Below, one piece after another: positions 1 through 13,460 of a stretch of 54,480 nt of DNA; within the stretch, counting starts at the first letter, position 1, and each line of letters opens with the position of its first letter. The DNA comes from a phage. A model generated the notes under the pieces. The model saw nothing but the letters and a program-made list of their open reading frames with translations, was not told the origin of the DNA and searched no databases. The position numbers were made by a program, and so were the translations under genes. Location of the stretch: the NCBI GenBank assembly GCA_018865545.1, contig GCA_018865545.1_3633.2. The stretch is one strand, 5' to 3'.

Positions 1-116
1 TTTTGAATGTGTACCGGAGCATGGCGCACAGGACTGGTTCATCTGTCTGTCTCAACTGGGGCGCGGCGGGTGTCAAGGTTTAGTTTTACGTTTGTTTGGG
101 TGTGGAGGAGAGTTTT

Positions 117-434
117 ATGGCCTACGATGAAAATTCTATCCGTGTGCTGTCACCTGAGGATATCAAACAACGATTTGACTGGGTACGCATCGGGGATTTG
201 GTTCACGAATATAACTTACCTGTGGATTGGGTCAGACGTGGTTTTGAAGCGTGCTGGAGGTTAGACATCGATCCTGATTATTTTATCAACAAGTACATCC
301 TCAAGCAGGATGTTGATCCTGTACCTGATTTTGAGGCTGTTTTTAAGGAGATTGTTATGGAGTCTCGATTCAAGGATCAGGTATGCACTCGGCAGTCTCA
401 AAAACGCACCTACGAATCAGATTTGCAAATGTAG
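117..434 (+). CDS. hypothetical early protein
   Basis: ORF track 96..434; start moved to ATG117 preceded by GGAGGAG RBS; no recognisable motif. Confidence 0.5.
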   Translation: MAYDENSIRVLSPEDIKQRFDWVRIGDLVHEYNLPVDWVRRGFEACWRLDIDPDYFINKYILKQDVDPVPDFEAVFKEIVMESRFKDQVCTRQSQKRTYESDLQM

Positions 435-513
435 CCTACGGATAGGTAAAAACATCAACGAAAATCGATTCTCCGCTGGATCTACAGAGTAAATTTTCAA
501 TTTTCGGAGAAAA

Positions 514-888
514 ATGATGAAACGTACTATGCCAGACAAAGAGCGCGAAATTGCCCTCCAGTTAGCAAGAGAAAAAAGAGAGCAACAAAAGCGAGAATGG
601 ACTGCGCTGGCAGAAGCGGGAAAAATACGCCAACATTTCGCTGACGCTAATCACTGGACAAGGCTTCGTAGCAAGTATAGGATTTCGTCTCCGTACAAAT
701 TAGCTCCCGCAGAAAGTGAGCATGGAATGAAAATTCTTAGACGAACGATCAGACTGACCGGAGGATTCGAGTGGTTCAATGAGTCTTTCGGTATGGACAT
801 CAAGCAGTTTGTCAGAATGAACCGTACGTGGCCTGCATACGCCATTCAGGGGATCATCCTTGAAGAGTGGGATGATTATCAGAATTGA
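514..888 (+). CDS. hypothetical early protein (basic N-terminus)
   Basis: ORF track; GGAGA RBS before ATG; no motif recognised. Confidence 0.55.
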   Translation: MMKRTMPDKEREIALQLAREKREQQKREWTALAEAGKIRQHFADANHWTRLRSKYRISSPYKLAPAESEHGMKILRRTIRLTGGFEWFNESFGMDIKQFVRMNRTWPAYAIQGIILEEWDDYQN

Positions 889-981
889 TTTTTGTTGTAT
901 TTCTGGTAGCCAACTGGTATGTTTATTACAGGGAGTGATAAACACCCCTGTGTTACTTGTTTTATACAGGAGAGTTGATAT

Positions 982-1605
982 ATGTCTTGGCCTTTTTTGA
1001 TTTATCTTATTGATGTTCTTAGTACGGATGGGAAGTATGATGGCTGGGGATTCTTGTTGTTTCTGTGTGTTATTGTATACATGCTGATGCGTCTTCTTCC
1101 AAAGATCCTCGAAGAACCTAAGCTGGATATCTATCCAGGACAAAATCTTGTTTTAGCACAAGATTGGTCACGATTTAAAGCCGGAGATGTTCTTGTTGTG
1201 AAGGATACTGCGGGTGGTGATGTTCTTCTTCGCCACGGGGAGGAATCCCTTGGTTCTTGGGTGAGCAAGAGCATTTTACGAAAAGTGTGCAAACTTGATG
1301 AAAAACAAGAATATATCCCACAGCAAGATGCGATGGAAACACCGCGAAAGTTAACTGTTATTGCTATGGTTGTCTGTGTAATAGGTATTCTATATGCCAA
1401 CTTCATGCCGCAGAAAGAGACTTCTTACAAGATGCTTGCTGCGTATGTAGGTCAAAACATTGTAGAATCTCCAAGGACTCAACAACTTGCAGACAGCACA
1501 ATCAAGTATCTTGATGCCCAAATCAAGAAGTACACTCAAGAATTGGGTGACTCCTCAGAAGTGGCGAGTAAGGAGTCTAAGCCTGGTGAGAAGGTGAAAG
1601 AGTGA
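982..1605 (+). CDS. hypothetical membrane protein
   Basis: ORF track; AGGAGAG RBS; two hydrophobic segments (LIYLIDVL..FLLFLCVIVYML and VIAMVVCVIGILYANF). Confidence 0.55.
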   Translation: MSWPFLIYLIDVLSTDGKYDGWGFLLFLCVIVYMLMRLLPKILEEPKLDIYPGQNLVLAQDWSRFKAGDVLVVKDTAGGDVLLRHGEESLGSWVSKSILRKVCKLDEKQEYIPQQDAMETPRKLTVIAMVVCVIGILYANFMPQKETSYKMLAAYVGQNIVESPRTQQLADSTIKYLDAQIKKYTQELGDSSEVASKESKPGEKVKE

Positions 1606-1967
1606 TGGGAAAGCCATTTGAAACAAAACGCATAGCGTTGGACTTTGATGATACTTTCACGCTAGAGCCTGAGAGATGGTCACAATTTGTTGCTCTATTT
1701 GCAGCAAAGGATTCAGGTTGGTGTGTTAAATTTGTTACTTATCGCTTCGATTCAGATGATAACTCTGATATCCAGTTTTGGGCTGAAAAACTAGGTATCG
1801 AAATAATTTATTGCAATGGTATCCAGAAAGCACAAGTTTGTGCAGAACTTGGTTGGATCCCAGATGTGTGGATAGACGATTTTCCTGTTCTCATTCCTGT
1901 GAAACAACAACTACAGGGTATGCTTTTAGGAATAGAAAATAACGAAGAAAAACATAATGCTAAGTAG
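1605..1967 (+). CDS. small HAD-like phosphatase (putative)
   Basis: ATG overlaps upstream stop (TGATG); motif IALDFDDTFT matches HAD motif I DxDxT; WIDDF resembles motif IV. Confidence 0.45.
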   Translation: MGKPFETKRIALDFDDTFTLEPERWSQFVALFAAKDSGWCVKFVTYRFDSDDNSDIQFWAEKLGIEIIYCNGIQKAQVCAELGWIPDVWIDDFPVLIPVKQQLQGMLLGIENNEEKHNAK

Positions 1968-2204
1968 TTTAAGGGGGAGTGTTGAGAAGCATTGCGTATT
2001 ACAAATTCAAATGTTGGGAGAAACTCTATGATTTGAGCTACCTTATTTTTGGGAATCTCCCTGTCACTGAAGACATTAAACACAAAATGTATCTTGCATA
2101 CATGAAATACCGTCTCCACGAAAGAAAGAGTGGTTGATGAGAATGTTATGATGCCCTGTAGATACTCTCTACAGGGCTTGAATGCTTAATCACAGGACTT
2201 ACCA

Positions 2205-3029
2205 ATGACAAGTATTTTACACACGACAGGTATTTTACCACACTATCAGAAGGACTATTCTTTCCCTGATTTATCTGGGGATATGTTGCAAATATACGAC
2301 AAAGTGCAAGGCGAAGTGTCGGAGCTACAGTTTAGTTCAGACCCTGATGATGAGCAAGAGTTTGATAAACAGATTTGTCGTGTAGAAAACGAGCTTATAG
2401 AGCTACAATCATTAGCCAAATCAACAGATATCGAAGACTTAAGGCGATACGTAGAGAATCTTGAAAACTTAGTGTTCGGGCTTTCGCAAGCTATTATAAA
2501 CATTGGCGAAATTGCTAAAGTTGCGTCTGACAAGTTGCCAGACAACACAGAAGATATTGAAGAAGCGTTGCAGAATATCTGCTATGAAGGAAGCTCTGCT
2601 CTCGGTTGTGAATGTAGCTTAGGCACTGCCCTCGAAGAACGTGGGTGGAGCCTAGCCCAAAAAACTTTTGTTTATCTTGTTATTGGTGGTGAGTTCCCAC
2701 GACTCTTACAACTTAATGCCCTTTTTGGAAACAGTCAGAGCGATAATATTGCATTAGGTATTGATGGTTGGTTCTGCTTAAGAGGTAAAGAATTAACATT
2801 TTGTCGTGGCGATGATGTGTTAATTCTCAATGCTTCTAAACCTGGTGTTGGAATAACAGTAAGACTTAATGGTAAGTCCACTAATTTCCACACCACAGAA
2901 TTGACAGATATTTTTATGGACATATTCGATCCTACAGAAGACGAAATTCTTATGTATGAAATGACCAGTGGAAAAAGGTATGATATTTTGTTGTGGAGAA
3001 ATATTTTCGGTAAGAAGAAAAGTTTATAG
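2205..3029 (+). CDS. hypothetical protein
   Basis: 274-aa ORF, weak RBS; no motif recognised. Confidence 0.45.
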   Translation: MTSILHTTGILPHYQKDYSFPDLSGDMLQIYDKVQGEVSELQFSSDPDDEQEFDKQICRVENELIELQSLAKSTDIEDLRRYVENLENLVFGLSQAIINIGEIAKVASDKLPDNTEDIEEALQNICYEGSSALGCECSLGTALEERGWSLAQKTFVYLVIGGEFPRLLQLNALFGNSQSDNIALGIDGWFCLRGKELTFCRGDDVLILNASKPGVGITVRLNGKSTNFHTTELTDIFMDIFDPTEDEILMYEMTSGKRYDILLWRNIFGKKKSL

Positions 3030-3285
3030 TATGATATTTTATCGCTGATATTTGTTTTCCCTGTGATATTTTTGTCACAGGGAAAGTTTCAACAACAGAT
3101 ATTTTCTTGATACTTTAAAACTCTACCAGAATTTAAAATTCTGTAAATTTAGAAAACTATTACTTATAAGCGTTTCGACACAATTTTGTTATGAAAGCCT
3201 TGTTTTTATATAAAAACCTGTTTTAGCATGAGTGGTAGGATCACACTCCATACTACCTTTATTCCTACAGATGAGCACCTCCATG

Positions 3286-3500
3286 TCCGAAAACTCGGTT
3301 CTCGATCGAAAATTCATTTTCCAGATCGTATTTGCTCCTTACGGAGAAAATTTTTTAGGGCTACAAATTTCAGTTCTCGATCAGTTTTTCGATTTCAAAA
3401 TCGTATTTGTTTTTTCTTGCGAAAAATTTCGCACGCTCAGTTCTCGATCGAGTTTTCAAAATCGAAATCGTATTTGCTCTATAGCGCGAAAAAATTTTTA
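3286..3500. repeat. three tandem ~68-bp direct repeats (iteron-like), core GTTCTCGATCG...AAATCGTATTTG
   Basis: Direct inspection: units starting near 3286, 3361 and 3428 share GTTCTCGATC(G/A), TTTTC, AAATCGTATTTG and GCGAAAAAATTT blocks. Confidence 0.6.
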
Positions 3501-3881
3501 TGGGTATCATAATTCTATCACACACTTAAACGCAAAGCAACATAAAAATTTTTGTTGAATGATAATCATTCTCATTTGCAGAATGACAGGTAGGATCGGT
3601 GTCTTATCCTCCCCCGTTGACCATCGTCGCCGTAGTTTGAAGTTTATAGCCGTTCTCGGCTTATCTCTTTGTTAGATATAGATTAACATAATTGATAAAG
3701 AAAGCAAGCGTTAATTGTAATCTTTACGTTTCTTTACAAATTTATTTTTGACGAGTTACCGGCGATCGACCTTCCAACCAGCGCCCTGGTATGTTAGCCC
3801 CGCCTTTACGCCGTGGGGATGGCGTTTCCTCTTCTGTATGTGAAACATTATAAGCCCGACCCCCGGGCTTGTCAAACATTT

Positions 3882-4148
3882 TTATTGTTTATTTTCTTGC
3901 CAGGTTAGGACACCTAGCCAGAAATGGCAATCACCTTTCGCCCATTGTGGTATATTGCTTTCTTTCCCACCTTCCCGCGCCCAGGAATAACCGCCCGTGT
4001 AACTTTGCAATTGATAACTATCCTCGACCTTATAATCTGACAGGCTGAGAACTGTTTCTACCTTTAAGCCCGTTGCGCTCGCTACCTGGTGGATAGTTCC
4101 CCCTTGCCAGCCTAACGCGTGCATAAGGTGCAATGTGGTCGTGGTCAT
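3882..4148 (-). CDS. hypothetical protein (isolated minus-strand gene)
   Basis: 88-aa ORF; AGGA RBS 9 nt upstream; possible divergent promoter TTGCCT-16-TATAGA; hairpin GCCCGGGGGTCGGGC downstream. Confidence 0.4.
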   Translation of the reverse strand: MTTTTLHLMHALGWQGGTIHQVASATGLKVETVLSLSDYKVEDSYQLQSYTGGYSWAREGGKESNIPQWAKGDCHFWLGVLTWQENKQ

Positions 4149-4224
4149 TTTTTCTATTCCTCTGTTAGTTGGCTAGTTGTTAAAATTATATCTATAACCA
4201 GCCAGGTTAGCAAGGCAAATAAAA

Positions 4225-4280
4225 GAGAAAAATTTTTTAAAAATAGTATTGACAGCTAGGTAGTATAGATCTACTATGTA
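4225..4280 (+). promoter_or_regulatory. sigma70-like promoter TTGACA-17-TACTAT with AT-rich upstream element (repeat copy 1)
   Basis: TTGACA at 4249-4254, TACTAT at 4272-4277; identical copy at 9289-9317. Confidence 0.55.
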
Positions 4281-4332
4281 CACATCAAGGCGATACACCG
4301 CCACCAACCAACCTAAAAAGGGGTGAATTAAT

Positions 4333-4956
4333 ATGAAAACCATCGTTAACGCTGAGAATGTATCTTTCGATAAGTTGAGCGACGCACAAAAAGAAAAAGC
4401 CATTGATCTTATTCGTGAGCGTGAAAGAGAAAGTAATAATGATTTCTTTGCTGATAGTGTCATTGAAGACTATAAGAATGACATTTTGCCAGAGTACGGG
4501 ATCGATGACGCGGTTATCTATTGGTCAGGATTCTGGTCGCAAGGCGACGGCGCATCAATCAGCACTGACCGCGTGGATATTGAAAAATTTTTAAGAAAAG
4601 TTAAATCTTTAACAAAATTCAGAGGGATCCGCAAACTATTTGATCTCGGTGAATATAGTCCGTTATATGCAAGCATTGAGCGGGATAATTACAGCCGCTA
4701 CCACCATGAAAATACTGTTTCCGGTTACGTTGACACTATGTATTGCGGCGATTTAACGGCAAAGCAGGAAGATTTGACCAATCAGCTTGAAAACTTGTTA
4801 ACTGAAACGATCCGCGATCTGTCTTGTAAACTTTACAGAGATTTAGAATCAGCCTACGATGACCAGTTTACAGATGAAGCCATCACAGAATCAATCGAAG
4901 CCAATGATTATCGTTTTGATATTGATGAAGATGGAAAAGTTTACGCTATCGCTTAA
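4333..4956 (+). CDS. hypothetical acidic early protein
   Basis: ORF track; AAAGGGG RBS; shares its first 8 codons (MKTIVNAE) with the gene at 9373. Confidence 0.6.
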   Translation: MKTIVNAENVSFDKLSDAQKEKAIDLIRERERESNNDFFADSVIEDYKNDILPEYGIDDAVIYWSGFWSQGDGASISTDRVDIEKFLRKVKSLTKFRGIRKLFDLGEYSPLYASIERDNYSRYHHENTVSGYVDTMYCGDLTAKQEDLTNQLENLLTETIRDLSCKLYRDLESAYDDQFTDEAITESIEANDYRFDIDEDGKVYAIA

Positions 4957-5046
4957 AAGTACTTGCATTCAGTTTTAAAATAGTACTATACTACTACAAC
5001 AACAGGACGGGGAACCGCTCCCCGTCACATTCAGGAGATCATCAAA

Positions 5047-5265
5047 ATGGCTAATATCCGCACATTGTTAAAAAATGCAAAGCAAGTTTTATTTTCTGAC
5101 GACGAATATTTTAATTGCAATATCAAAGGCGTTCGGAACATCGAGGATGTAAAGGATTTATTTGGAATAAAAGGTAATGTATATCGTAAAGGGTTACACG
5201 GCAATCATCTTGAATATAAGTTAGCTGATAGTGATTATAATTTTACTTTGACAATTATTTCATAA
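5047..5265 (+). CDS. hypothetical protein
   Basis: ORF track; AGGAGA RBS; preceded by GC hairpin 5006-5028. Confidence 0.5.
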   Translation: MANIRTLLKNAKQVLFSDDEYFNCNIKGVRNIEDVKDLFGIKGNVYRKGLHGNHLEYKLADSDYNFTLTIIS

Positions 5266-5330
5266 AACCACTTGCAAAGTTATATAGTCCTGTTATACTA
5301 CCAACATTGACAAACGAGAGGTAAATAAAA

Positions 5331-5687
5331 ATGGCAATCCAGGCAATCATGTTAGAACTTACAGACTTCCGTAATACTGTAAAAAATTTAACCAAAAAAC
5401 AGGTTGATAATATTATCAACGGATACCGTAGCAAGATTAAAGATCTTCCGCTTAAACGCGATCAACATGCGGCTAATATGATGCTTGACGCTATGATCAA
5501 AAAGATGATTCAGTGCGATCTTACTCTGGCTTATGAATACGCTGGCGATCTCTTTGTAACGTATAATAAGCCAGTGCCAGGCATGTGCACCACGGAAGAA
5601 TTGCACGCCCTGAATCTAAAACAAGATGCATGGGATAATATGCGCCGCGTTATGGTGTGGGCAGAAAGCGGTAAAATTTATCAATAA
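5331..5687 (+). CDS. hypothetical protein
   Basis: ORF track; GAGAGG RBS; upstream TTGCAA-16-TATACT promoter-like sequence. Confidence 0.55.
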   Translation: MAIQAIMLELTDFRNTVKNLTKKQVDNIINGYRSKIKDLPLKRDQHAANMMLDAMIKKMIQCDLTLAYEYAGDLFVTYNKPVPGMCTTEELHALNLKQDAWDNMRRVMVWAESGKIYQ

Positions 5688-5689
5688 AG

Positions 5690-5735
5690 ATAGTTGTCTT
5701 TTAGTTATGCCGTGGTAGAATACACGGCATAGATA
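5690..5735 (+). promoter_or_regulatory. promoter TTGTCT-16-TAGAAT with palindrome ATGCCGTG/CACGGCAT flanking the -10
   Basis: Direct inspection; near-identical element at 10280-10325. Confidence 0.45.
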
Positions 5736-5763
5736 AGAGAAACTACTTATCAGAGTTTAAAAG

Positions 5764-5982
5764 ATGAAAAATATTACGGGTAAAACCGAGCTATTAAAGG
5801 CGCTTTCTGTCGGTGAGTCAGCTTTATGGGTATGCGAAAAAGATCGCCTACCGTCGCGTGAGATGGCCTTGTTTAAGGCTTTATCTTTGAAGCTGAAAAT
5901 TAAATTATCCCAAAAATTAGCGGTTGTTGCCGCACCTGGGGAAACTGCTTTCAGTGTCGTAATGGTTAAAAGGTTGGAGTAG
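5764..5982 (+). CDS. hypothetical protein
   Basis: 72-aa ORF downstream of the palindromic promoter; weak RBS. Confidence 0.4.
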   Translation: MKNITGKTELLKALSVGESALWVCEKDRLPSREMALFKALSLKLKIKLSQKLAVVAAPGETAFSVVMVKRLE

Positions 5983-6067
5983 AAAAAATTAAAAATTATA
6001 TTGACAAGCAAAACAGCAAAAATTAAACTTACACACAGTTAAACAAACAATATTAACGAGGTAAATC

Positions 6068-6439
6068 ATGAAACAGTTAACCGCTTCCCAAAAAGCAATG
6101 ATCCGTGAGTATGTTTTAAACTCTCTTTCTTTCGATATTGAATCGGGTAGCGAGCAAGATCAGATCAAAGAATTAAAAAACCGATTTGAATCTGAATACT
6201 GGTACGATAGCAACAAGAAACGCTATCAAAATGATAAAGTACAAGGCCTCAAAAATTGGTTGCAAGGTTTGCCGAGTGGTGTTAATATCGATTTCACTTA
6301 TTACGATATTGAGCAACGCCTTAAAGATTTTGGGGTCATCACCGAGACGACCAGAGAAAACACTATTGAAAAATATATCTCTGAGTGGTGGGATCTGGTA
6401 GCGCCGTTTTATGCTGGGCTAATCGTCAACTTAAAATAA
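6068..6439 (+). CDS. hypothetical protein
   Basis: ORF track; GAGG RBS; upstream TTGACA-17-TAAACT. Confidence 0.55.
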   Translation: MKQLTASQKAMIREYVLNSLSFDIESGSEQDQIKELKNRFESEYWYDSNKKRYQNDKVQGLKNWLQGLPSGVNIDFTYYDIEQRLKDFGVITETTRENTIEKYISEWWDLVAPFYAGLIVNLK

Positions 6440-6516
6440 TTATTGCAAACTATCTAAAACTGGTTTAAATTAAAGGGAGTGAGTTTATCACTCCCAACAT
6501 GAAAGAGGTTAATCAA

Positions 6517-6828
6517 ATGAATAGTTATTTTGCTACTCGTTCACTTGCACGCATTGCAGCGAAAGAAACAGGCGGCAAAGTTTTAGATAATGGTAAAGAT
6601 GCGCCTATCGGTAAACGTTGGCAGGTTATCCCTGGCTATGTTGTTGAAGCCGTCCAGGATACAGCAAAACAACGCGCCGAGATGGAGAATAAACCAGTAG
6701 TTACCTTGTCCATTGCTAAGCGTAGCAATGTAGCGAATCAAGCCCGTAAGGCGCTTTATTACGCCATCAATTACGCAAAAAATAATAAAATTGTTCCAGT
6801 TTATCATAAGCGTTCATTTAAGAAATAA
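6517..6828 (+). CDS. hypothetical protein
   Basis: ORF track 6499..6828; start moved to ATG6517 behind AAGAGG RBS; hairpin 6473-6493 upstream. Confidence 0.5.
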   Translation: MNSYFATRSLARIAAKETGGKVLDNGKDAPIGKRWQVIPGYVVEAVQDTAKQRAEMENKPVVTLSIAKRSNVANQARKALYYAINYAKNNKIVPVYHKRSFKK

Positions 6829-6897
6829 TTTTTAATTAGATAAAAAGCGCCCTAAGAAATGGGCGCTAAACAAAAACACTTAAAGAGGTAAATTATT

Positions 6898-7248
6898 ATG
6901 GCCAGCATTGTAGAAGTTTTCAAAAAAGCCGTAGAAAATAAAAACGCTGAATTGTCTTTAGTATCTCTGGATTTTACTGATGCTTACGGTAACACTTATT
7001 TTGTTTACGAGCTTGCTTTTACTTGTCCTGAATTGAAAACATGGGAAACATTGCATAAATCTCGCGATCTGCAATATGGATATGGCGATCACGTTTTAAC
7101 TGTTGCAATGAAAGACCTTGCAATCATTACCGGGATGGGATCGGACGCTGTATATATTACCCGTTGGGCACACGATAACGATTTAAAAATCAGTGTCAAC
7201 AAGCGCACCAATTGCCGCAAAAAAGATCTAAAACAGTTCATCGCTTAA
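6898..7248 (+). CDS. hypothetical protein
   Basis: ORF track; AAGAGGT RBS; hairpin AGCGCCC..GGGCGCT upstream. Confidence 0.55.
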
Positions 7249-7264
7249 TCATCCTGGTAGCTGT

Positions 7265-7615
7265 ATGATTCAGTTTTATATAATCATCGCGGCGCTTGCA
7301 ATTTATTTAGGATTGCATAAAAAAATATTTAGATTGATTCTCTGGTTTTACTACGAATACAGGATCAGAATGGTTTATCACTATATCGAATACTCTTTTC
7401 ACGGTGAGAGATACCACACCAGAAGATCCGGCCCATTAAATGATCTTGAGGGCAACGGTTTAATCTGTGAGGTTAAAAAGCGTGGCGGTAAAATTCTTTA
7501 CCACAAAGAGGGTACTTTTGATTATATTGATGACGTGATTAATTTTAGGCAGCAAGCCGTTGCAGATCACGCCAGCAAAATAATCAACGGCAGCTATAAA
7601 CGCAAAGCGGGGTAA
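7265..7615 (+). CDS. hypothetical protein with N-terminal transmembrane segment
   Basis: ORF track; hydrophobic N-terminus IIIAALAIYLGL; weak RBS. Confidence 0.4.
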   Translation: MIQFYIIIAALAIYLGLHKKIFRLILWFYYEYRIRMVYHYIEYSFHGERYHTRRSGPLNDLEGNGLICEVKKRGGKILYHKEGTFDYIDDVINFRQQAVADHASKIINGSYKRKAG

Positions 7616-7616
7616 T

Positions 7617-7799
7617 ATGCGGAATTTTGAAAAAATTGTTAAGGCTAATCGTCTGGAATATGGGGAAACAGACGAAAAACGGGAACGGGTAGGCAAACGT
7701 CACAAACCTAAAAAGGTTCCGAAATTGTGGTGTCCTGATAAATACGATCACAAATTAAAACAGCGTATCGCTGAAAAACAGCGACTTAACGCAAGATAG
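7617..7799 (+). CDS. small basic protein
   Basis: ORF track; Lys/Arg-rich; followed by intrinsic terminator. Confidence 0.4.
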   Translation: MRNFEKIVKANRLEYGETDEKRERVGKRHKPKKVPKLWCPDKYDHKLKQRIAEKQRLNAR

Positions 7800-7804
7800 C
7801 AGAC

Positions 7805-7830
7805 AAGGCCGGATAGTTCCGGCCTTTTTA
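7805..7830 (+). terminator. rho-independent terminator
   Basis: Hairpin AAGGCCGGA-TAGT-TCCGGCCTT followed by TTTTT. Confidence 0.6.
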
Positions 7831-8016
7831 GTGCCTGGCAGCGCCTGTAACGATTAAAAAGGCCAACGGTGGCGTGATGCACCACAAAATAAAATAGCTC
7901 GCCAGAGAGCTTTTTAGAGGCCTTAAAATCGATCCGAAAAATATTGATAAAAAATGCTTGCAATGCTTTCCAGATACTGATAGTGTTACTTCAACAAACA
8001 AAACGAGGTAACGGCA

Positions 8017-8154
8017 ATGATCGAAGTTCTTAAAAATCCTATTTTGTGTGGTATGGTTGTTTCTGTACTACTCCCGATCTCGCTGTTAGTCGTTAGCGAA
8101 ATAGATGATTTTCTTTTCAATAAAAGACTTGCCAACAAGTCAAAAACAAATTAA
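8017..8154 (+). CDS. small hydrophobic peptide (45 aa)
   Basis: Not in ORF track (under 60 aa); ACGAGGT RBS 7 nt before ATG8017; hydrophobic core ILCGMVVSVLLPISLLVV. Confidence 0.3.
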   Translation: MIEVLKNPILCGMVVSVLLPISLLVVSEIDDFLFNKRLANKSKTN

Positions 8155-8191
8155 TATAGTATCAGCATACTAACTAGCGAGGTGATTTAAT

Positions 8192-8410
8192 ATGTTTGGT
8201 TTTATTGTTCTATCTTGTTCTCTTTCTGTCACTGCTGCAAAGGTAGAATGTAACTACACTGTAAAAGAGACTTTTAATGATGAAAAGTCTTGCAATGCAT
8301 ACGAAAATAATTATAAACTAGGAGACGGGGAGCAGTTCGGGATCTGTGATGAATTAAAAGACGGGATCAAGAAAGGTGATAAGCGCCCGATCCTAGTCCT
8401 GAAAAAATAA
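8192..8410 (+). CDS. small secreted protein (putative signal peptide)
   Basis: ORF track; GCGAGGTG RBS; N-terminus MFGFIVLSCSLSVTAA resembles a signal peptide. Confidence 0.5.
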   Translation: MFGFIVLSCSLSVTAAKVECNYTVKETFNDEKSCNAYENNYKLGDGEQFGICDELKDGIKKGDKRPILVLKK

Positions 8411-8450
8411 TTTTCTAATCATGTTGATCAATTTTTAAGAGGTGAATAAA

Positions 8451-8738
8451 ATGTTTGAAGTTTTCGCGGGTATGTGTTTTTATACAGCTTTGGCAGTTCG
8501 CCAGTGTGATGATTATATCGTTGAATCATACGACGATCAGTTAACTTGCGAAATAGTCGCTAATGACTACGGCAAAAAAGATCGCTGGGTTAATCCGGCT
8601 TGTATACCATCCCCAGAGGTAGAAGCCATGCCAGAAGGGGAAGAGGTGACGGATCCAGTTGTAGCGGTATCCTCCTTTTTCGTTGACAACCTGGACGCCC
8701 AAGAATTGATCAACATGTATGTAAAAAATCAAAAATAA
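8451..8738 (+). CDS. hypothetical protein
   Basis: ORF track 8442..8738; start moved to ATG8451 behind AAGAGGTG RBS. Confidence 0.5.
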   Translation: MFEVFAGMCFYTALAVRQCDDYIVESYDDQLTCEIVANDYGKKDRWVNPACIPSPEVEAMPEGEEVTDPVVAVSSFFVDNLDAQELINMYVKNQK

Positions 8739-8780
8739 CGCTTGACGTTGATTTGTGCCACCTTATAATAGGTGGCATAG
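8738..8780 (+). promoter_or_regulatory. promoter TTGACG-16-TATAAT with palindrome TGCCACC/GGTGGCA flanking the -10
   Basis: Direct inspection of 8742-8777. Confidence 0.45.
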
Positions 8781-8828
8781 GTAAGCGAAAGCGGATCTAA
8801 ATCTTAAACAAGTTAAGAGAGGTAAATC

Positions 8829-9149
8829 ATGGAACAAGCTAATAAATTTTTCTTCCTGGCTGGGATCGTGGATAATGTGAAATGTGATTTCAAGCGTGAA
8901 AATGATAAGACGTTACTCACTTTCTGCGATATGCTTGATCATGAGAATGCCGACACGTTACGAATTGAGATCCGCACGATAACCAATATCGACAACGCAA
9001 GCCGTTTAATTTATAAAACTCATTCTATAGCCTACAGCCTAGAAACATCGACAAGCTGCCTGCAACAAGGTGAGAGCTTGCCTATTCTAAATAGTGCCGA
9101 TGTATTTGGCGCGGTTGTTGCCATTGTGAACGATGTTTTTTCCCGCTGA
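8829..9149 (+). CDS. hypothetical protein
   Basis: ORF track; AGAGAGGT RBS. Confidence 0.5.
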   Translation: MEQANKFFFLAGIVDNVKCDFKRENDKTLLTFCDMLDHENADTLRIEIRTITNIDNASRLIYKTHSIAYSLETSTSCLQQGESLPILNSADVFGAVVAIVNDVFSR

Positions 9150-9264
9150 TTGGTGTTAATCTTATGTTAGAAAATATCGTTTTTTGGTGTGGTGTCGTTC
9201 TTGCTGTTATGGTTGGCCTTCTGGCGACGATGGAGAATATTGTGATCTCAAATAACCTGGCACG

Positions 9265-9320
9265 GTAAAAAATTTTTTAAAAATAGTATTGACAGCTAGG
9301 TAGTATAGATCTACTATGTA
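9265..9320 (+). promoter_or_regulatory. sigma70-like promoter TTGACA-17-TACTAT (repeat copy 2)
   Basis: Part of the 130-bp perfect direct repeat 9268-9397 = 4228-4357. Confidence 0.55.
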
Positions 9321-9372
9321 CACATCAAGGCGATACACCGCCACCAACCAACCTAAAAAGGGGTGAATTAAT

Positions 9373-9660
9373 ATGAAAACCATCGTTAACGCTGAGATAA
9401 AAGAGGGTAACAAAATAAATATTCTAACAGTTTATGGCGAGACTGTGGAGTCAGTATCGGAGGCTATTAATAAGATTACACAAAAAATTGCAATTGAAAT
9501 ATTAGCCAGTGATCCGGCTCGTTTGTTTAATGATGTGTACCATGATGACGTATCTTTGCCGTGCTTCACTTTCAAAACAGAAAGCACGTTTGACAAAGTA
9601 AAAAAGTGTATACCTGTTCACGTCTATCTGTGCCAGGAAGATCCAGAAGATTGGATCTAA
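9373..9660 (+). CDS. hypothetical protein
   Basis: ORF track; same RBS and first 8 codons as the gene at 4333, then diverges. Confidence 0.55.
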   Translation: MKTIVNAEIKEGNKINILTVYGETVESVSEAINKITQKIAIEILASDPARLFNDVYHDDVSLPCFTFKTESTFDKVKKCIPVHVYLCQEDPEDWI

Positions 9661-9695
9661 CGGTTGACAATACGCAATGATTGCTTATAATAACC
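9660..9695 (+). promoter_or_regulatory. promoter TTGACA-16-TATAAT
   Basis: Consensus hexamers at 9664-9669 and 9686-9691. Confidence 0.5.
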
Positions 9696-9738
9696 CGCAT
9701 CAGACGGTAAGTTTTCCGCACCTAACAAAAGGCTAATA

Positions 9739-10008
9739 ATGATGAACATCTCAAAAACTACTTTCAACTTCGCTAAAAAGCGTGGGATTGAGCTTGAGCT
9801 AATCGCAGCAGATGATCGCTTGGTCCTGGCTTTTTATGAAGCTAAAAACGAATGTGAGTGGATGTTCTCTTATAATGTTAACTATGATTGCCTAACATGG
9901 CGCGGCAATATCTATCTTCCAAACGAAGTAAAAGAGGAATTACCAGCCACGATCACGACTGAGAAAAAATTACGTGAAGTTATTGACTTCATCTCTAAAA
10001 GTATCTAA
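9739..10008 (+). CDS. hypothetical protein
   Basis: ORF track; AAAGG RBS; downstream of consensus promoter. Confidence 0.5.
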   Translation: MMNISKTTFNFAKKRGIELELIAADDRLVLAFYEAKNECEWMFSYNVNYDCLTWRGNIYLPNEVKEELPATITTEKKLREVIDFISKSI

Positions 10009-10054
10009 GATTACAGGGAAAGGGGCAAAAGCCCCCTACCGCAGAAGGTATAAA

Positions 10055-10279
10055 ATGGATAAATTAACAAAGATTGAACATGAAGTTATGGATCTTGCAA
10101 GGGCTAATAGGCCATTTGACAAGATTTTCTCTAAGGAGAATAAAGAGATCTTGAAAGGTCTAACGCAAGGTCAAAAAGACGGCTTGCGCCGCTTATATCG
10201 TGAGGCGTATGACTATTTTCGCTGGTGGGAAATAGAAGAGGCTAACGCGAAAATAGAAGGCCTAGAAAATTTAGTATAA
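10055..10279 (+). CDS. hypothetical protein
   Basis: ORF track 9974..10279; start moved to ATG10055 behind GAAGGT RBS; GC hairpin 10017-10040 upstream. Confidence 0.45.
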   Translation: MDKLTKIEHEVMDLARANRPFDKIFSKENKEILKGLTQGQKDGLRRLYREAYDYFRWWEIEEANAKIEGLENLV

Positions 10280-10325
10280 AAGTAGTTGACTTTTACTTAT
10301 GCCGTGATAGAATGCACGGCATAGA
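10280..10325 (+). promoter_or_regulatory. promoter TTGACT-16-TAGAAT with palindrome GCCGTG/CACGGC flanking the -10
   Basis: Near-identical to the element at 5690-5735. Confidence 0.45.
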
Positions 10326-10374
10326 TAAGAGAGACGGCACAAGCCATTGATTAAACTTAAAGAGGTAAATTATC

Positions 10375-10776
10375 ATGAATACTTACAAAACTGTTTTTAA
10401 TTTCGACAACTTCAAAGCTATCTGTGACGATCAGATCGGTAAGTGCCGTAAAGAAAAAGGATTCTATAAGTCTTATAAATTGATTGCGGTTGTTGATGAA
10501 GAGATCACCGAAGTGGCAACGCTCAACCTGTACCACACCAACGCTACTAATTACGCTTGCCTGTGGATGCACTGGACCAATATTAAAGGTTGGGATCATG
10601 GCTATGTTGGCGGGAAAGCAAGCGGATACGGTTACGACAGGGAGGAGGCCGCGATCCATGTCGCAGCTAATAAGCTCGGTATTACTGGCAACTGGTTTAA
10701 AGGTGAACAATTGCTAGATGCGATGGCACGTCATTTTGATATGAAAGGCGCGAAGGTTATCTGCTGCAACGCGTGA
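10375..10776 (+). CDS. hypothetical protein
   Basis: ORF track; AAAGAGGT RBS. Confidence 0.55.
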   Translation: MNTYKTVFNFDNFKAICDDQIGKCRKEKGFYKSYKLIAVVDEEITEVATLNLYHTNATNYACLWMHWTNIKGWDHGYVGGKASGYGYDREEAAIHVAANKLGITGNWFKGEQLLDAMARHFDMKGAKVICCNA

Positions 10777-10823
10777 TCACTCAATAGCGGGGAATATTCC
10801 CCGCTTATAGATAGGGCATAATC

Positions 10824-11282
10824 ATGATTTACGATCTTAAATATTACGACGAATTGAGCATTGCAGCACAATTAACCGCCCGTGTCAATATTATAGCAGA
10901 CCTGGAGAATCACCACAGAAAGCGCATAGTTCAGGCTGTCGCCAGTTTTAAAAATGATCCCCATAAAGTGATTAATGACACGGAGCACATTTCACGCCTC
11001 ATAAACGGCGCAAAGGCGCTTTATAGTGTACGTCATTACGGGGATGATTACCTTATAAAGTTTATTCGTGATAATCGTTTGATCTTTACCCCTGGAGGCA
11101 GCTATATAGCCTATAGCGACGGCTTTATGATGATTATTAAGGGTAAGGAATACATCCCCACGGCCTCACAACAAAAAGCATTGAGAGCGCTTTACATCGC
11201 CATTAATGAGCGTGGCCCGTCATATCATGATTGGCTATATAGAATGCACCACAAAATAAAATTTTTTATGATTCCCGCTTGA
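10824..11282 (+). CDS. hypothetical protein
   Basis: ORF track; preceded by hairpin GCGGGGAATATTCCCCGC. Confidence 0.5.
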   Translation: MIYDLKYYDELSIAAQLTARVNIIADLENHHRKRIVQAVASFKNDPHKVINDTEHISRLINGAKALYSVRHYGDDYLIKFIRDNRLIFTPGGSYIAYSDGFMMIIKGKEYIPTASQQKALRALYIAINERGPSYHDWLYRMHHKIKFFMIPA

Positions 11283-11360
11283 CACCCTCATAAAAACGCC
11301 TTATTATCTATCTCATAAGGCGGGGAGCGGTTCCCCGCCACACTTAAGAGGTAAATAATC

Positions 11361-11750
11361 ATGCGTAACCTGGTTCATGTTTCCAACGTTGAAAAATTCC
11401 AATCTTTACAGGCTATCGTAAACGATACAGCGCCTTTTATCGTTAAAGGCTTGATCGCAAGAATGCAACAGAAAAAACCTGAAATCTGGGCTAATTATTG
11501 CCTTGATAATGATGATCAGGCCGCCGCTTTCATGGTTAGCGAACTGCTGGGAAGTGTAGGGAACATGTTACCGGAAAACATCGCAGAAGAGATCACCTAT
11601 CGTTATAATATGGCGATAACTTATCAGGAGGTTGCGCAATTTAACCTGATGGATGACGACGAACAACAGGATCAGGAAATTTACTGGGAGTATGCCGACC
11701 GTCAGGCAGCTTTTGATGAACGGTTGGAGATGTACTATAACGAATGGTAA
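11361..11750 (+). CDS. hypothetical acidic protein
   Basis: ORF track; TAAGAGGT RBS; acidic C-terminus DDDEQQDQE. Confidence 0.55.
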   Translation: MRNLVHVSNVEKFQSLQAIVNDTAPFIVKGLIARMQQKKPEIWANYCLDNDDQAAAFMVSELLGSVGNMLPENIAEEITYRYNMAITYQEVAQFNLMDDDEQQDQEIYWEYADRQAAFDERLEMYYNEW

Positions 11751-11756
11751 TAAACA

Positions 11757-11787
11757 GGCCGCATATTAGCGGCCTTTAATTTTTTCT
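11757..11787 (+). terminator. rho-independent terminator
   Basis: Hairpin AGGCCGC-ATATTA-GCGGCCT followed by TTAATTTTTT. Confidence 0.6.
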
Positions 11788-11847
11788 ATTGACAATATTA
11801 CACTAACCTTTAAAATGTTCTCTATTAAGTATCTTTAAAGGTGTAAC

Positions 11848-12027
11848 ATGCTCCAATCAATCATTGATGTTCTATCAGTCGCTAACAACGTGATGAACGT
11901 AATTACAATGATTAAACTTGTTGCGTGGTTTGTTTCCGGGGATTATCGCTATATTAAATGGCGCAAGCCAACCATAAAAGACGTAGTGAAGATCTCATTT
12001 GAAGCAATGACAGAATATTATCTATAA
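11848..12027 (+). CDS. small hypothetical protein (59 aa)
   Basis: Not in ORF track; AAAGGTG RBS before ATG11848; upstream TTGACA promoter-like. Confidence 0.3.
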   Translation: MLQSIIDVLSVANNVMNVITMIKLVAWFVSGDYRYIKWRKPTIKDVVKISFEAMTEYYL

Positions 12028-12088
12028 CGATTATTTTTTGTTGACATCCAAAAGATTTTTCAATACCATTGATCACATAAGGGCGGCA

Positions 12089-12316
12089 ATGATGCTGCCC
12101 ACAACTGAAAGAGAAATCACCATGGCGCTTAAAAAACTAACAAGTAATACACGTTGGGATGAAATCGGCGGGGAAGTATACATTTTCGCCCGTAAACCAG
12201 GTGATCAAAAATGGTCAAAGGCTTTTACTTGCCACCCTGCAACCATAGACCTGATAAAAAGGGAAGGTTTACGCGAAGCAGTAGCAAGAAATTTGCTGAT
12301 TCCTTATAAAAAATAG
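12089..12316 (+). CDS. hypothetical protein
   Basis: ORF track 12038..12316; start moved to ATG12089 behind AAGGGCGG; upstream TTGACA-17-TACCAT. Confidence 0.45.
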   Translation: MMLPTTEREITMALKKLTSNTRWDEIGGEVYIFARKPGDQKWSKAFTCHPATIDLIKREGLREAVARNLLIPYKK

Positions 12317-12382
12317 TTTGAAATTAATTTCATTATTGATAAAATCTTATATAAAACTTTAACCTAAAAGGGGTAAATTAAT

Positions 12383-12583
12383 ATGAAACGTTTTACTTAT
12401 GGTGTGGTTGGCGGTTCTGTTTCAAACCGTTTTTACAATACCGAGCGTGGTGCTAAAAATGCAGCTACCCGTGAATATGGCAATAGTGCAAATTTACAAG
12501 TTGGCTACATTAGCAAAATTAGCGGTATGTTTATTCCGGTTGCTCAACGCGGCATGTATTGCATAAACTGGATGCCAATGTAA
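12383..12583 (+). CDS. hypothetical protein
   Basis: ORF track; AAAAGGGGT RBS. Confidence 0.5.
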   Translation: MKRFTYGVVGGSVSNRFYNTERGAKNAATREYGNSANLQVGYISKISGMFIPVAQRGMYCINWMPM

Positions 12584-12598
12584 AAAGGAGTAATAAAA

Positions 12599-12790
12599 AT
12601 GGATGTACCACAAGTTAGAAAGGTATTAGCAGCGTTACGCTATCACAATCATAGCAAGGTGAAGAATGATCCTGATTATGTTGATTCCAGCTTGGAGGAA
12701 GACACCTTGCAAGCTATAAGCCATATGCAGGAATTGCTTAAGCGTATGACAGAGAAGAACAGATCTGATTATATAGGTGAAGAGATTTAA
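12599..12790 (+). CDS. hypothetical protein
   Basis: ORF track; AAAGGAG RBS. Confidence 0.5.
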   Translation: MDVPQVRKVLAALRYHNHSKVKNDPDYVDSSLEEDTLQAISHMQELLKRMTEKNRSDYIGEEI

Positions 12791-12821
12791 TCTCTTACAA
12801 CCGCACAAAGTAAAATTGTAC

Positions 12822-12850
12822 AAGGGGCGCATTAAGCGCCCTTTATTTTT
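12822..12850 (+). terminator. rho-independent terminator ending the plus-strand cluster
   Basis: Hairpin GGGGCGC-ATTA-AGCGCCC followed by TTTATTTTTG. Confidence 0.6.
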
Positions 12851-13235
12851 GCCCTAACAAGTATGATAAGTTTTATCTATCAAAACACCACACAGAAAAA
12901 AGTGAATAAAACGCGGTATCGAGCTAAACGAGGGCAGACAATACAACGGCAAGGCTGAACATTTAAGGCCGTTATAACGCGATTCAGGCCGCTTAAAATC
13001 GATCCCCACCACGAACAACCCCCACAAAATGACTAAAACGACACAACATGACCTAAATGATAACCATTATCAATAACATAAGCATTTTTATGCGTTTTTA
13101 GTGAATATCTATTTAAATGATAATGACTCTCAACAACAAACTAACACGACCGAAGCGATTTAATCGCCTACCACAAAATTAATCATTTGTAAAGAACAAT
13201 TTAAAAGCTGCGTAAGTGGCGCGACCGTAGGGAGC

Positions 13236-13460
13236 GACACAATAACGCAGTAGTAACCCCTCCCCTCACTCCTTACAGTCGCCCGGTATCGGGCTAGCGT
13301 TATTATGTCGCTACGCGCCAACGCGTTAACAATTTTGCAAAGAAGCCTGCTTTGCAGGTTAAGCGCATTGCGCTTAATCGCGTAGCGACTATGTGAAATT
13401 ATAACAGTTAAATTATTAATAAAATCTTGCAAAATTGTTAACCTACTGCGTTATTGTGTC
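13236..13460. repeat. nested and interleaved inverted repeats
   Basis: 18-bp perfect IR GACACAATAACGCAGTAG (13236-13253) / CTACTGCGTTATTGTGTC (13443-13460); 16-bp IR 13325-13340 / 13427-13442; 11-bp IR GTCGCTACGCG / CGCGTAGCGAC; palindrome TTAAGCGCATTGCGCTTAA. Confidence 0.7.

Follow-up and report, generated by a model that had tools for sequence, protein, structure and literature searches.

A putative PeSL-like accessory region of small genes in an Avunavirus-like coliphage

The first 12,850 nucleotides (nt) of a 54,480-nt stretch of phage DNA (contig GCA_018865545.1_3633.2 of assembly GCA_018865545.1; the whole stretch is hereafter called the window) are crowded with small genes of unknown function. 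The locus raises the question of what kind of region this is and whether its products act in host takeover or against host defences, as a first-pass annotation of the sequence had proposed. The analysis points to a hyperplastic accessory-gene region, similar to those built with the PeSL elements of T4-type phages, in an Avunavirus-like coliphage of the Vequintavirinae, a reading to which a probability of about 0.72 is assigned.

The source group of the window was recognized by megablast of positions 1–13000 against 50,697 phage records as that of the rV5-like coliphages (Vequintavirinae, Avunavirus-like). Escherichia phages 18-1-2, 19-1-2, 24-2-1, vB_EcoM_TH18 (TH18) and Av-05, the last being the type of Avunavirus, matched at 93–94% nt identity over 95–98% of this query, and all remaining phages covered at most 12% of it. 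Upstream of the position of the window start the relatives carry genes for nicotinamide phosphoribosyltransferase and phosphoribosylpyrophosphate (PRPP) synthetase, divergent and pointing away from the block, and downstream of it the window holds minus-strand genes for ribonucleotide reductase, thymidylate synthase, ligase, exonuclease, Dam and the CCA-adding enzyme. With minus-strand genes on both flanks, the block is thus a plus-strand island between two minus-strand blocks.

Organization of the gene block

Six-frame open reading frames (ORFs), the upstream sequences and the boundaries of PHROG matches together defined 29 plus-strand genes of 45–274 amino acids (aa) between 117 and 12790, with start codons revised for four of them (6517, 8451, 10055 and 12122), and an additional conserved hydrophobic ORF of 34 aa at 9164–9268 (Table 1). 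The count and the sizes agree with the roughly 28 small genes of the first-pass annotation. The continuous run described there does not hold, since the block is interrupted at 3030–4332, where there is no plus-strand gene; this interval holds a minus-strand gene (3882–4148), a minus-strand promoter, a non-coding element and three direct repeats. The strong ribosome-binding sites noted earlier were found again: when the upstream sequences were read directly, about 24 of the 29 genes showed a clear Shine-Dalgarno (SD) sequence.

Twelve strong sigma70 sites (score of at least 10) are present on the plus strand of positions 1–12900, against 4.5 +/- 2.4 in dinucleotide shuffles. All of them end 32–62 nt upstream of a start codon, positions that represent only about 8% of the region, so that chance placement is very unlikely. 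In the comparison with TH18 and Av-05 the 24 hexamers of these promoters carry a single substitution in 234 aligned positions. The promoter spacers diverge by 8.8%, other intergenic DNA by 8.1% and third codon positions by 12.3% (Fisher p = 2e-7). Judged by these near-invariant hexamers, the 12 strong promoters appear convincingly functional. The 25 nt upstream of the -35 hexamer are richer in AT (77%) than the region as a whole (61%). Six further genes have only weak promoter matches, whose conservation gives no clear signal, and the scan for weak matches was itself barely above chance (56 versus 44 +/- 6); eleven genes, arranged in tight operon-like runs, have no promoter match. A promoter of their own is firmly supported for about 40% of the genes, and for up to about 60% on a generous count. 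The earlier statement that most genes have their own sigma70-like promoter was therefore partly right, and too broad in extending such promoters to the majority.

A recurrent intergenic plan could be seen across the block, in the order stop codon, AT-rich tract, -35, spacer, -10, GC-rich hairpin, AAGAGGTAAAT.AT and ATG, with the hairpin placed over the -10, in the spacer or in the 5' untranslated region (5'UTR). The recurrent leader AAGAGGTAAAT.AT-ATG carries the SD sequence and the start codon at the 3' end of the cassettes. Perfect stems of at least 7 bp fall in non-coding DNA in 16 of 26 cases, non-coding DNA being 26% of the region. Clear promoter stem-loops start at 3852, 5706, 8756, 10298 and 11297. 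The -10 hexamer lies inside the loop of the hairpins at 5706–5731, 8756–8777 and 10298–10323 and is overlapped by the hairpin at 11297–11322, and the hairpin at 3852–3870 occupies the whole spacer of the promoter on the minus strand and serves at once as 3' hairpin for the gene upstream. Adjoining stem-loops are found at 5006, 11756 and 12081, and further hairpins in the 5'UTR, 13–32 nt before the start codon; the stem-loop is missing or weak at the promoters at 5272, 6001, 9664 and 12318. A few true terminators with T-runs (7805–7826, 11756–11775 and 12822–12844) split the block into units.

Gain, loss and spread of single-gene modules

A direct repeat of 130 nt, 100% identical, is present on the plus strand at 4228–4357 and 9268–9397, and comprises an AT-rich tract, a promoter, the 5'UTR, the SD sequence and the first eight codons (MKTIVNAE) of a gene. 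The two copies flank 5,040 bp that hold 13 genes plus the 34-aa ORF, 14 ORFs in all; if the copies recombined, these 5,040 bp would be deleted or excised as a circle. A second repeat of 81 nt (79% identity), with promoter and hairpin, starts at 5663 and at 10255 (10255–10335), and leader/SD repeats recur across the block.

The gene content differs from that of TH18 and Av-05 at exactly three places, each time by a whole promoter-to-gene module. The segment 9295–9715 with g9373 is missing in both relatives, where identity breaks off immediately behind the -35 TTGACA and picks up again at the g9739 leader. Neither PHROG nor a tblastn search of the 50,697 phage records gave a match to g9373. The segment 12049–12371 with g12122 is missing in Av-05, with the left junction directly after TTGACATC. 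TH18, in turn, has one module more, a promoter with its gene, which is placed between g12599 and the terminal terminator and starts about 15 nt upstream of its own TTGACA. A different kind of change is seen in g5047, with 72–78% nt identity to TH18 and Av-05 within a background of 93% and a divergence concentrated in the middle of the protein, a pattern that would point to allele replacement or diversifying selection.

The full gene set is found in only 6 of the 50,697 phage records, and single genes are scattered over unrelated families (tblastn with the concatenated products). Thus, g982 to g2205 also occur in Seunavirus, Mydovirus and Proteus phages, g4333 and g5331 in rV5-type phages and jumbo phages of about 350 kb, g1602 in N4-like podophages, and g9739 in T1-like siphophages, RB49, phi92 and a Vibrio phage. 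Bas60, a Justusliebigvirus from another subfamily, has a homologous train of small genes in which the shared genes follow a different order. Taken together, the repeats, the promoter-bounded insertions and deletions (indels), the scattered genes and the gene order of Bas60 fit a modular shuffling at promoter and leader repeats.

Comparison with known systems

In T4-type phages the PeSL (promoter-early stem-loop) cassette consists of a sigma70 promoter preceded by AT-rich DNA, together with a stem-loop placed 'most commonly between the -35 and -10 or overlapping the -10', ends with an SD sequence and start codon, and sits in hyperplastic regions beside ORFans; for RB49/phi1 its promoter, terminator and mini-circle (recombination) activities were shown experimentally (Arbiol 2010, PMC2839356; Comeau 2014, PMC4122927). 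The block resembles the PeSL regions of RB49/phi1, PST and nt-1 in its near-consensus sigma70 promoters and AT-rich upstream DNA, in stem-loops, at a subset of its promoters, between -35 and -10, over the -10 or beside the promoter, and in the SD sequence and start codon at the cassette end. In both, small ORFans are flanked by cassettes, the junctions of gain, loss and replacement fall inside cassettes, and direct cassette repeats flank sets of genes. The block differs in its lineage, Vequintavirinae instead of Tevenvirinae-type, and in having a strong hairpin at a subset of the promoters, and its promoter, terminator and mini-circle activities are, unlike those of RB49/phi1, putative. In the literature searched, PeSL-like elements are reported only from T4-type phages, a cyanophage and haloviruses.

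On this model the host RNA polymerase would transcribe the block genes immediately after DNA entry, hence their presumed early character; the repeated promoter and leader sequences would act as recombination joints that shuffle single-gene modules, as for T4-type PeSL cassettes; and the products would be dispensable host-interaction factors of mixed kinds (takeover, exclusion, counter-defence), with the g4333 family as the best counter-defence candidate.

Several observations weigh against this model. The breakpoint argument comes from three indels only, and cassette recombination is inferred from its products. A strong hairpin covers the core promoter in only 5 of the 13 strong promoters (12 on the plus strand and one on the minus strand), and the hairpin energy of all 29 upstream regions does not differ from that of coding-sequence controls (p = 0.22); the hairpin component is therefore a feature of a subset. 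For the first six genes (117–3029) no strong promoter is present within the window; they behave like a conventional operon, whose probable promoter is a TG-extended one located, in the relatives, about 410 nt upstream of the first ATG and beyond the window start. The minus-strand metabolic and replication block is also rich in sigma70-like sites (23 versus 13.2 +/- 3.9), so that such promoters are not unique to the gene block. The early timing, finally, is deduced from the promoter type; literature searches for a transcriptome found nothing specific for Vequintavirinae, and with a single TATAAATA on each strand of the window, the T4-type late promoter is too rare to help in contrasting early with late regions.

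The block is best described as a further example of a known architecture, in genomes that are already public. Clusters of small early genes of unknown function are standard in large lytic phages, and the block already lies unannotated in public genomes, which makes the find an ordinary one. What is gained is a corrected map of the genes and a set of 12 promoters conserved in evolution, for a group for which no published transcriptome was found, together with the indication that promoter-cassette shuffling of the T4 type may also operate in an unrelated myovirus lineage. The cassette layout makes single genes easy to delimit, delete or swap.

Other known systems share single traits with the block. 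The accessory regions of Silas et al. (bioRxiv 10.1101/2023.04.06.535777) likewise hold variable, exchanged, non-essential-looking small genes between conserved blocks; in that study genes were tested functionally, no block gene is known among those, and rV5-type phages are absent from the main text. The early class I genes of T7 and the pre-early set of T5 are also small genes read by the host RNA polymerase at the start of infection, as is presumed for the block. They differ in that the block has neither a two-step DNA entry nor a phage RNA polymerase logic, and apart from g7617, of the T7 gp1.1 family, nothing is homologous between the block and these sets. Plasmid leading-region islands (Samuel et al. 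2024, PMC11541004) have the g4333 family in common with the block, and both are expressed first on DNA entry (presumably so in the phage), but only one of about 30 block genes is shared.

The g4333 family and its plasmid context

The product of g4333 has 273 homologs, no Pfam domain and two motifs invariant in the family, GFWSQGDGAS and YxHENT; Q70, D72 and H125 are among the invariant residues. Searches of PDB sequences with the single sequence and with a profile were empty or at chance level, and a fold search with the AF2 model gave no convincing match. Homologs of about 30% identity are encoded by 38 plasmids, 23 of them conjugative. In all six conjugative or related plasmids inspected the homolog lies among markers of the plasmid establishment region, with ssb, a ParB of about 700 aa, radC, DUF932, an ArdC-like zincin, toxin-antitoxin modules and strawberry notch or a methylase-helicase as neighbours; the neighbouring antirestriction gene was confirmed as PF03230. 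Plasmid leading regions are rich in anti-defence genes (PMC11541004), and the label of leading region is given here to the sampled plasmids on the basis of these marker genes. The rank of g4333 as best counter-defence candidate is due to these plasmid neighbours.

In five of the six plasmids, which are alphaproteobacterial, an ORF of 136–145 aa precedes the g4333 homolog with an overlap of 8 nt, suggesting that both may form a two-gene unit; in the sixth (Celeribacter) an IS110 transposase gene is placed directly upstream. The phage g4333 is without this partner ORF. The plasmid homolog bears the NCBI name 'antitoxin of toxin-antitoxin stability system'; no Pfam model matches the plasmid homologs and no NCBIfam model matches the phage g4333.

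Coding status and possible functions of the products

A sceptical reading would take many of the ORFs for over-called frames in fast-evolving filler DNA. It finds some room in the annotation, as the homologues of the block genes are all named 'hypothetical protein' in TH18 and also in Av-05, with the exception there of the g5047 homologue (product name 'phosphoribosylpyrophosphate synthetase'), in g9373, which has neither a PHROG family nor a match in the phage database, and in g11848, which has no PHROG family. The substitution pattern speaks against it: the pooled dN/dS is 0.12 and 0.15 relative to the TH18 and Av-05 orthologs (Nei-Gojobori), and almost every gene lies below 0.3, which identifies the ORFs of the block as genuine protein-coding genes under purifying selection. 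Moreover, 27 of the 29 genes match PHROG families (E-values from 1e-20 to 1e-113, always labelled 'unknown function'), the SD windows diverge by only 3.2% between relatives, and the AF2 models of g4333 and g9739 reach a pLDDT of 91. The sceptical reading is thus largely refuted and, as an account of the block, very improbable; it survives only for g9373 and the 34-aa ORF.

None of the products looks structural or housekeeping, the outcome that would have spoken against the host-takeover and anti-defence role suggested by the first-pass annotation. In its strong form this proposal makes the block chiefly an anti-defence or host-takeover island, with several proteins that inhibit host nucleases, restriction or abortive infection. 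The character of an accessory region, variable and mosaic with host-type promoters, agrees with it, as such regions are reported to concentrate counter-defence genes (bioRxiv 10.1101/2023.04.06.535777), and so do the small, very acidic products of g2205, g4333, g8451 and g11361 (isoelectric points of 4.1–4.4) and the g4333 homologs that adjoin ssb, the large ParB, radC, the PF03230 gene and strawberry notch in 6 of 6 plasmids. Against these points, the gene-neighbourhood evidence concerns one gene only, g4333, of about thirty. No product matches characterised anti-defence proteins (Ocr, ArdA, KlcA/ArdB, Acr, Tad, Gad, Acb and others) in Pfam, NCBIfam or PDB sequences, nor did structure prediction with fold search, a check proposed in the first-pass annotation and run for g4333 and g9739, reveal any such protein; a literature search for anti-defence genes or a functional screen in Vequintavirinae found nothing specific. 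The BASEL study describes Vequintavirinae and relatives as 'exceptionally susceptible' to restriction-modification systems (PMC8594841), which is published phenotypic evidence against an effective anti-restriction. A block devoted chiefly to anti-defence is thus conceivable, with the balance tilting against it: the accessory character and the host-type promoters stand, the claim of inhibitors finds no direct support, and the anti-defence interpretation is a reasonable guess with g4333 as its one contextually supported candidate. In T4 (Imm, Sp) and T5 (Llp) exclusion is brought about by small membrane proteins expressed early, and the block could by analogy encode mainly membrane-acting factors of superinfection exclusion or lysis timing instead of cytoplasmic inhibitors. 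About five or six products have a predicted membrane helix or a signal- or lipobox-like N-terminus (g982, g7265, g8017, g8192, the 34-aa ORF at 9164 and, more weakly, g11848), but around 24 of the 30 products carry no membrane signal and no homology to Imm, Sp, Llp or Cor was found in Pfam or in the PHROG annotation, so this alternative is considered unlikely. For a functional screen, the g4333 family would rank first, the widely travelled g9739 next, and then the window-specific orphan g9373.

Of the block genes, g7617 alone has a Pfam match above threshold, to the T7 gp1.1 family (PF08200; 27.9 bits against a cut-off of 21, residues 1–33 aligning with positions 1–31 of the 40 of the profile). 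To our knowledge, no function has been assigned to T7 gp1.1 itself. The NCBIfam search of the block products gave nothing beyond a coiled-coil artefact matching EzrA, and a PDB sequence search with the 30 products concatenated gave no match even at E = 10. Below threshold remained g10824 against Fil of phage 186 (18 bits, Pfam cut-off 25) and g6068 against the antitoxin family Unstab_antitox. In g1602 the four HAD motifs (DxDx(T/V); S/T; K; DD or (G/S)Dxxx(D/E)) are present in order, and D13xD15xT17, T45, K75 and D91D92 are invariant in 18 homologs; no Pfam match was obtained for any of the 18 members and no PDB match with single sequence or profile, and the protein may be called HAD-like by motif only.

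A conserved RNA-like element in the interruption

A closer inspection of the interruption at 3030–4332 showed that about 95 nt of the non-coding element, downstream of the minus-strand promoter, are more conserved than the adjacent protein-coding gene, with 60 invariant columns in an alignment of 16 sequences from five Vequintavirinae lineages and Stephanstirmvirinae. By blastn the element is present in 233 phage records, nearly all of which have nothing annotated at the matching site. Thirteen IMG/VR contigs contain a 26-nt core of the element, and 13 metagenome contigs a 23-nt core; in the genomes of 185,579 bacterial and archaeal species the 23-nt core was seen in one 4-kb contig of a metagenome-assembled genome only. 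A 45-aa ORF overlapping the element is broken in Bas60 by a 2-nt indel, with loss of the ATG.

A three-helix structure of 16 pairs is 99.6% paired in 29 distinct sequences, against 18–50% for shifted-register controls. One pair is compensatory (A-U in 19 sequences, G-C in 10, never mismatched), and the apical hairpin is variable in length; an outer helix GAAGAG/CTCGTC was dropped, as it is not kept across the 29 aligned sequences. The promoter of the element is present in 13 of 13 distinct upstream sequences, and 11 of these have a GC-rich spacer hairpin (-5 kcal/mol or lower) of differing sequence. No Rfam family was matched at the gathering threshold, and only chance-level matches appeared up to E = 10. 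The element is thereby a candidate small RNA, mainly on account of its extreme conservation and the single covarying pair. It is put forward tentatively, at somewhat less than even odds, that the element represents a new structured small-RNA family specific to rV5-like and phAPEC8-like phages, transcribed from the perfect consensus promoter on the strand opposite the cassette genes. On this reading it would act early as part of a module for host manipulation or counter-defence, to which cassette genes like the g4333 family, shared with plasmid establishment regions, would also belong. In any case, a conserved RNA-like element of more than 230 phage genomes is covered by no annotation or Rfam model.

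The phiTE pseudo-ToxI (Blower 2012, PMC3475682) is a precedent for a phage RNA with a counter-defence role and, like the element, a non-coding locus in an rV5-like phage. The identification of the element with this escape locus was rejected, since both position and repeat unit differ: pseudo-ToxI lies at 106.7 kb in phiTE, against 39.7 kb for the RNA-like element, and has another sequence and a repeat unit of 36 nt.

The ORF-free DNA at 3030–3700 diverges from the relatives by 4.1%, a level similar to that of first and second codon positions; other intergenic DNA reaches 8.1%. The three direct repeats placed here have conserved ends (GTTCTCGATC ... ATCGTATTTG, with GATC sites) and each its own small internal hairpin; they may act as iterons, bind a regulator or represent a repeated RNA. 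The ORF-free zones also share a motif, TTTGTAAAGA, at 3717–3736 (minus strand), 13187–13196 and 14214–14224. On the 3' side of the RNA-like element the motif is present in duplicate as TTTGTAAAGAAACGTAAAGA, followed in other genera by a second GC-spacer promoter; it may be a regulator-binding site. Putative Fur boxes at 3556–3580 and 13054–13138 were dropped, as no match to the 19-nt consensus within 3 mismatches was found.

Table 1. Coordinates of genes, promoters, terminators and non-coding features of the block (promoters as -35 hexamer, spacer length and -10 hexamer).
Feature	Position	Strand	Description
g117	117..434	+	105 aa, acidic; phrog_18265; dN/dS 0.23-0.52; strong SD
g514	514..888	+	124 aa, basic; phrog_21723; dN/dS 0.12-0.27
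g982	982..1605	+	207 aa; phrog_12750; membrane helices predicted at 20-44 and 120-144; weak promoter only, 895-923
g1602	1605..1967	+	120 aa; phrog_4919; HAD-phosphatase-like motifs
g1979	1979..2137	+	52 aa; phrog_11776; 11-nt spacer after preceding gene; without promoter
10-bp hairpin upstream of g2205	2153..2177
g2205	2205..3029	+	274 aa, acidic; phrog_12959; coiled-coil-like N-terminal part; EzrA sub-threshold only
Three direct repeats, 63-75 nt	3294..3498		ORF-free DNA
RNA-like conserved non-coding element	3731..3846	-	no Rfam family
Consensus sigma70 promoter	3847..3875	-	TTGACA-17-TATAAT; AAGCCCG/CGGGCTT hairpin in spacer
Minus-strand gene	3882..4148	-	88 aa; phrog_19316; annotated in TH18, Av-05 and Bas60
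Strong promoter for g4333	4249..4277	+	TTGACA-17-TACTAT
g4333	4333..4956	+	207 aa, acidic; phrog_5162
g5047	5047..5265	+	72 aa; phrog_12266; divergent allele
Strong promoter for g5331	5272..5299	+	TTGCAA-16-TATACT with TG
g5331	5331..5687	+	118 aa; phrog_7352; 88% nt identity to Bas60 (other subfamily)
Strong promoter	5694..5721	+	TTGTCT-16-TAGAAT with TG; -10 in loop of 9-bp hairpin 5706-5731
g5764	5764..5982	+	72 aa; phrog_5988; dN/dS at most 0.02
Strong promoter for g6068	6001..6029	+	TTGACA-17-TAAACT
g6068	6068..6439	+	123 aa; phrog_11100; Unstab_antitox sub-threshold
g6517	6517..6828	+	103 aa, very basic; phrog_8127 match from residue 7; start moved from 6499, SD precedes ATG 6517
g6898	6898..7248	+	116 aa; phrog_6246
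g7265	7265..7615	+	116 aa; phrog_7903; predicted N-terminal membrane helix
g7617	7617..7799	+	60 aa, basic; Pfam PF08200 Phage_1_1
Intrinsic terminator	7805..7826	+	9-bp GC stem, then TTTTT
g8017	8017..8154	+	45 aa; phrog_7482; predicted membrane peptide
g8192	8192..8410	+	72 aa; phrog_12257; signal-peptide or lipobox-like N-terminus (IVLSC)
g8451	8451..8738	+	95 aa, acidic; phrog_8255
Strong promoter	8742..8769	+	TTGACG-16-TATAAT; -10 is loop of hairpin 8756-8777
g8829	8829..9149	+	106 aa; phrog_7366
Possible 34-aa hydrophobic ORF	9164..9268	+	annotated peg131 in TH18
Strong promoter for g9373	9289..9317	+	TTGACA-17-TACTAT
g9373	9373..9660	+	95 aa; orphan on inserted module
Promoter for g9739, perfect consensus	9664..9691	+	TTGACA-16-TATAAT
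g9739	9739..10008	+	89 aa; most widely spread block gene
g10055	10055..10279	+	74 aa; phrog_24380 match from residue 28; start moved from 9974
Strong promoter	10286..10313	+	TTGACT-16-TAGAAT with TG; -10 in loop of hairpin 10298-10323
g10375	10375..10776	+	133 aa; phrog_7028; about 40% identical homolog in rV5-type phages
g10824	10824..11282	+	152 aa; phrog_8549; Fil sub-threshold
Strong promoter	11279..11307	+	TTGACA-17-TATTAT; overlaps hairpin 11297-11322
g11361	11361..11750	+	129 aa, very acidic; phrog_15485; 78% nt identity to Bas60
Terminator hairpin and T-rich run	11756..11775	+	14 nt upstream of next -35
Strong promoter for g11848	11789..11816	+	TTGACA-16-TAAAAT
g11848	11848..12027	+	59 aa, partly hydrophobic; no PHROG match; conserved in TH18 and Av-05
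Strong promoter for g12122	12041..12069	+	TTGACA-17-TACCAT; left breakpoint of Av-05 deletion
g12122	12122..12316	+	64 aa; phrog_20168; start moved from 12038; module absent from Av-05
Strong promoter for g12383	12318..12345	+	TTGAAA-16-TAAAAT with TG
g12383	12383..12583	+	66 aa, basic; phrog_7744
g12599	12599..12790	+	63 aa; phrog_9599; 80% identical homolog in jumbo phage 121Q
Terminal intrinsic terminator of cluster	12822..12844	+	conserved in TH18, extra TH18 module directly upstream

Other features of the window and its relatives

Downstream of the block, the plus and minus transcription blocks run towards each other across 1.5 kb of ORF-free DNA, in which positions 13236–13460 contain nested perfect inverted repeats of 18 nt (13236/13443) and 16 nt (13325/13427). 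The inner segment of 118 bp is inverted in Av-05 (98% identity), which suggests that this may be an invertible or palindrome-recombining segment. Scans of the entire window for tRNA genes and Rfam families (gathering threshold) gave no matches.

The records of 18-1-2, 19-1-2 and 24-2-1 (OK136181, OK181860 and OK181862) are GenBank 'complete genomes' of about 54 kb that match the 54.5-kb window nearly end to end, and the window corresponds to only part of TH18 (134 kb) and Av-05 (121 kb). The records of about 54 kb, and probably the window too, look like partial genomes. Positions 50770–51555 of the window are the counterpart of a TH18 gene annotated as a SIR2-family deacetylase. NAD-salvage genes, such as the nicotinamide phosphoribosyltransferase and PRPP-synthetase genes of phages, are linked to countering NAD-depleting defence systems. 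Several records deposited as 'Campylobacter phage' with C. jejuni as host (MG065639, MG065645, MG065689) are genomes of about 146 kb with around 83% identity to Escherichia phages of the phAPEC8 type, and their host labels look doubtful.

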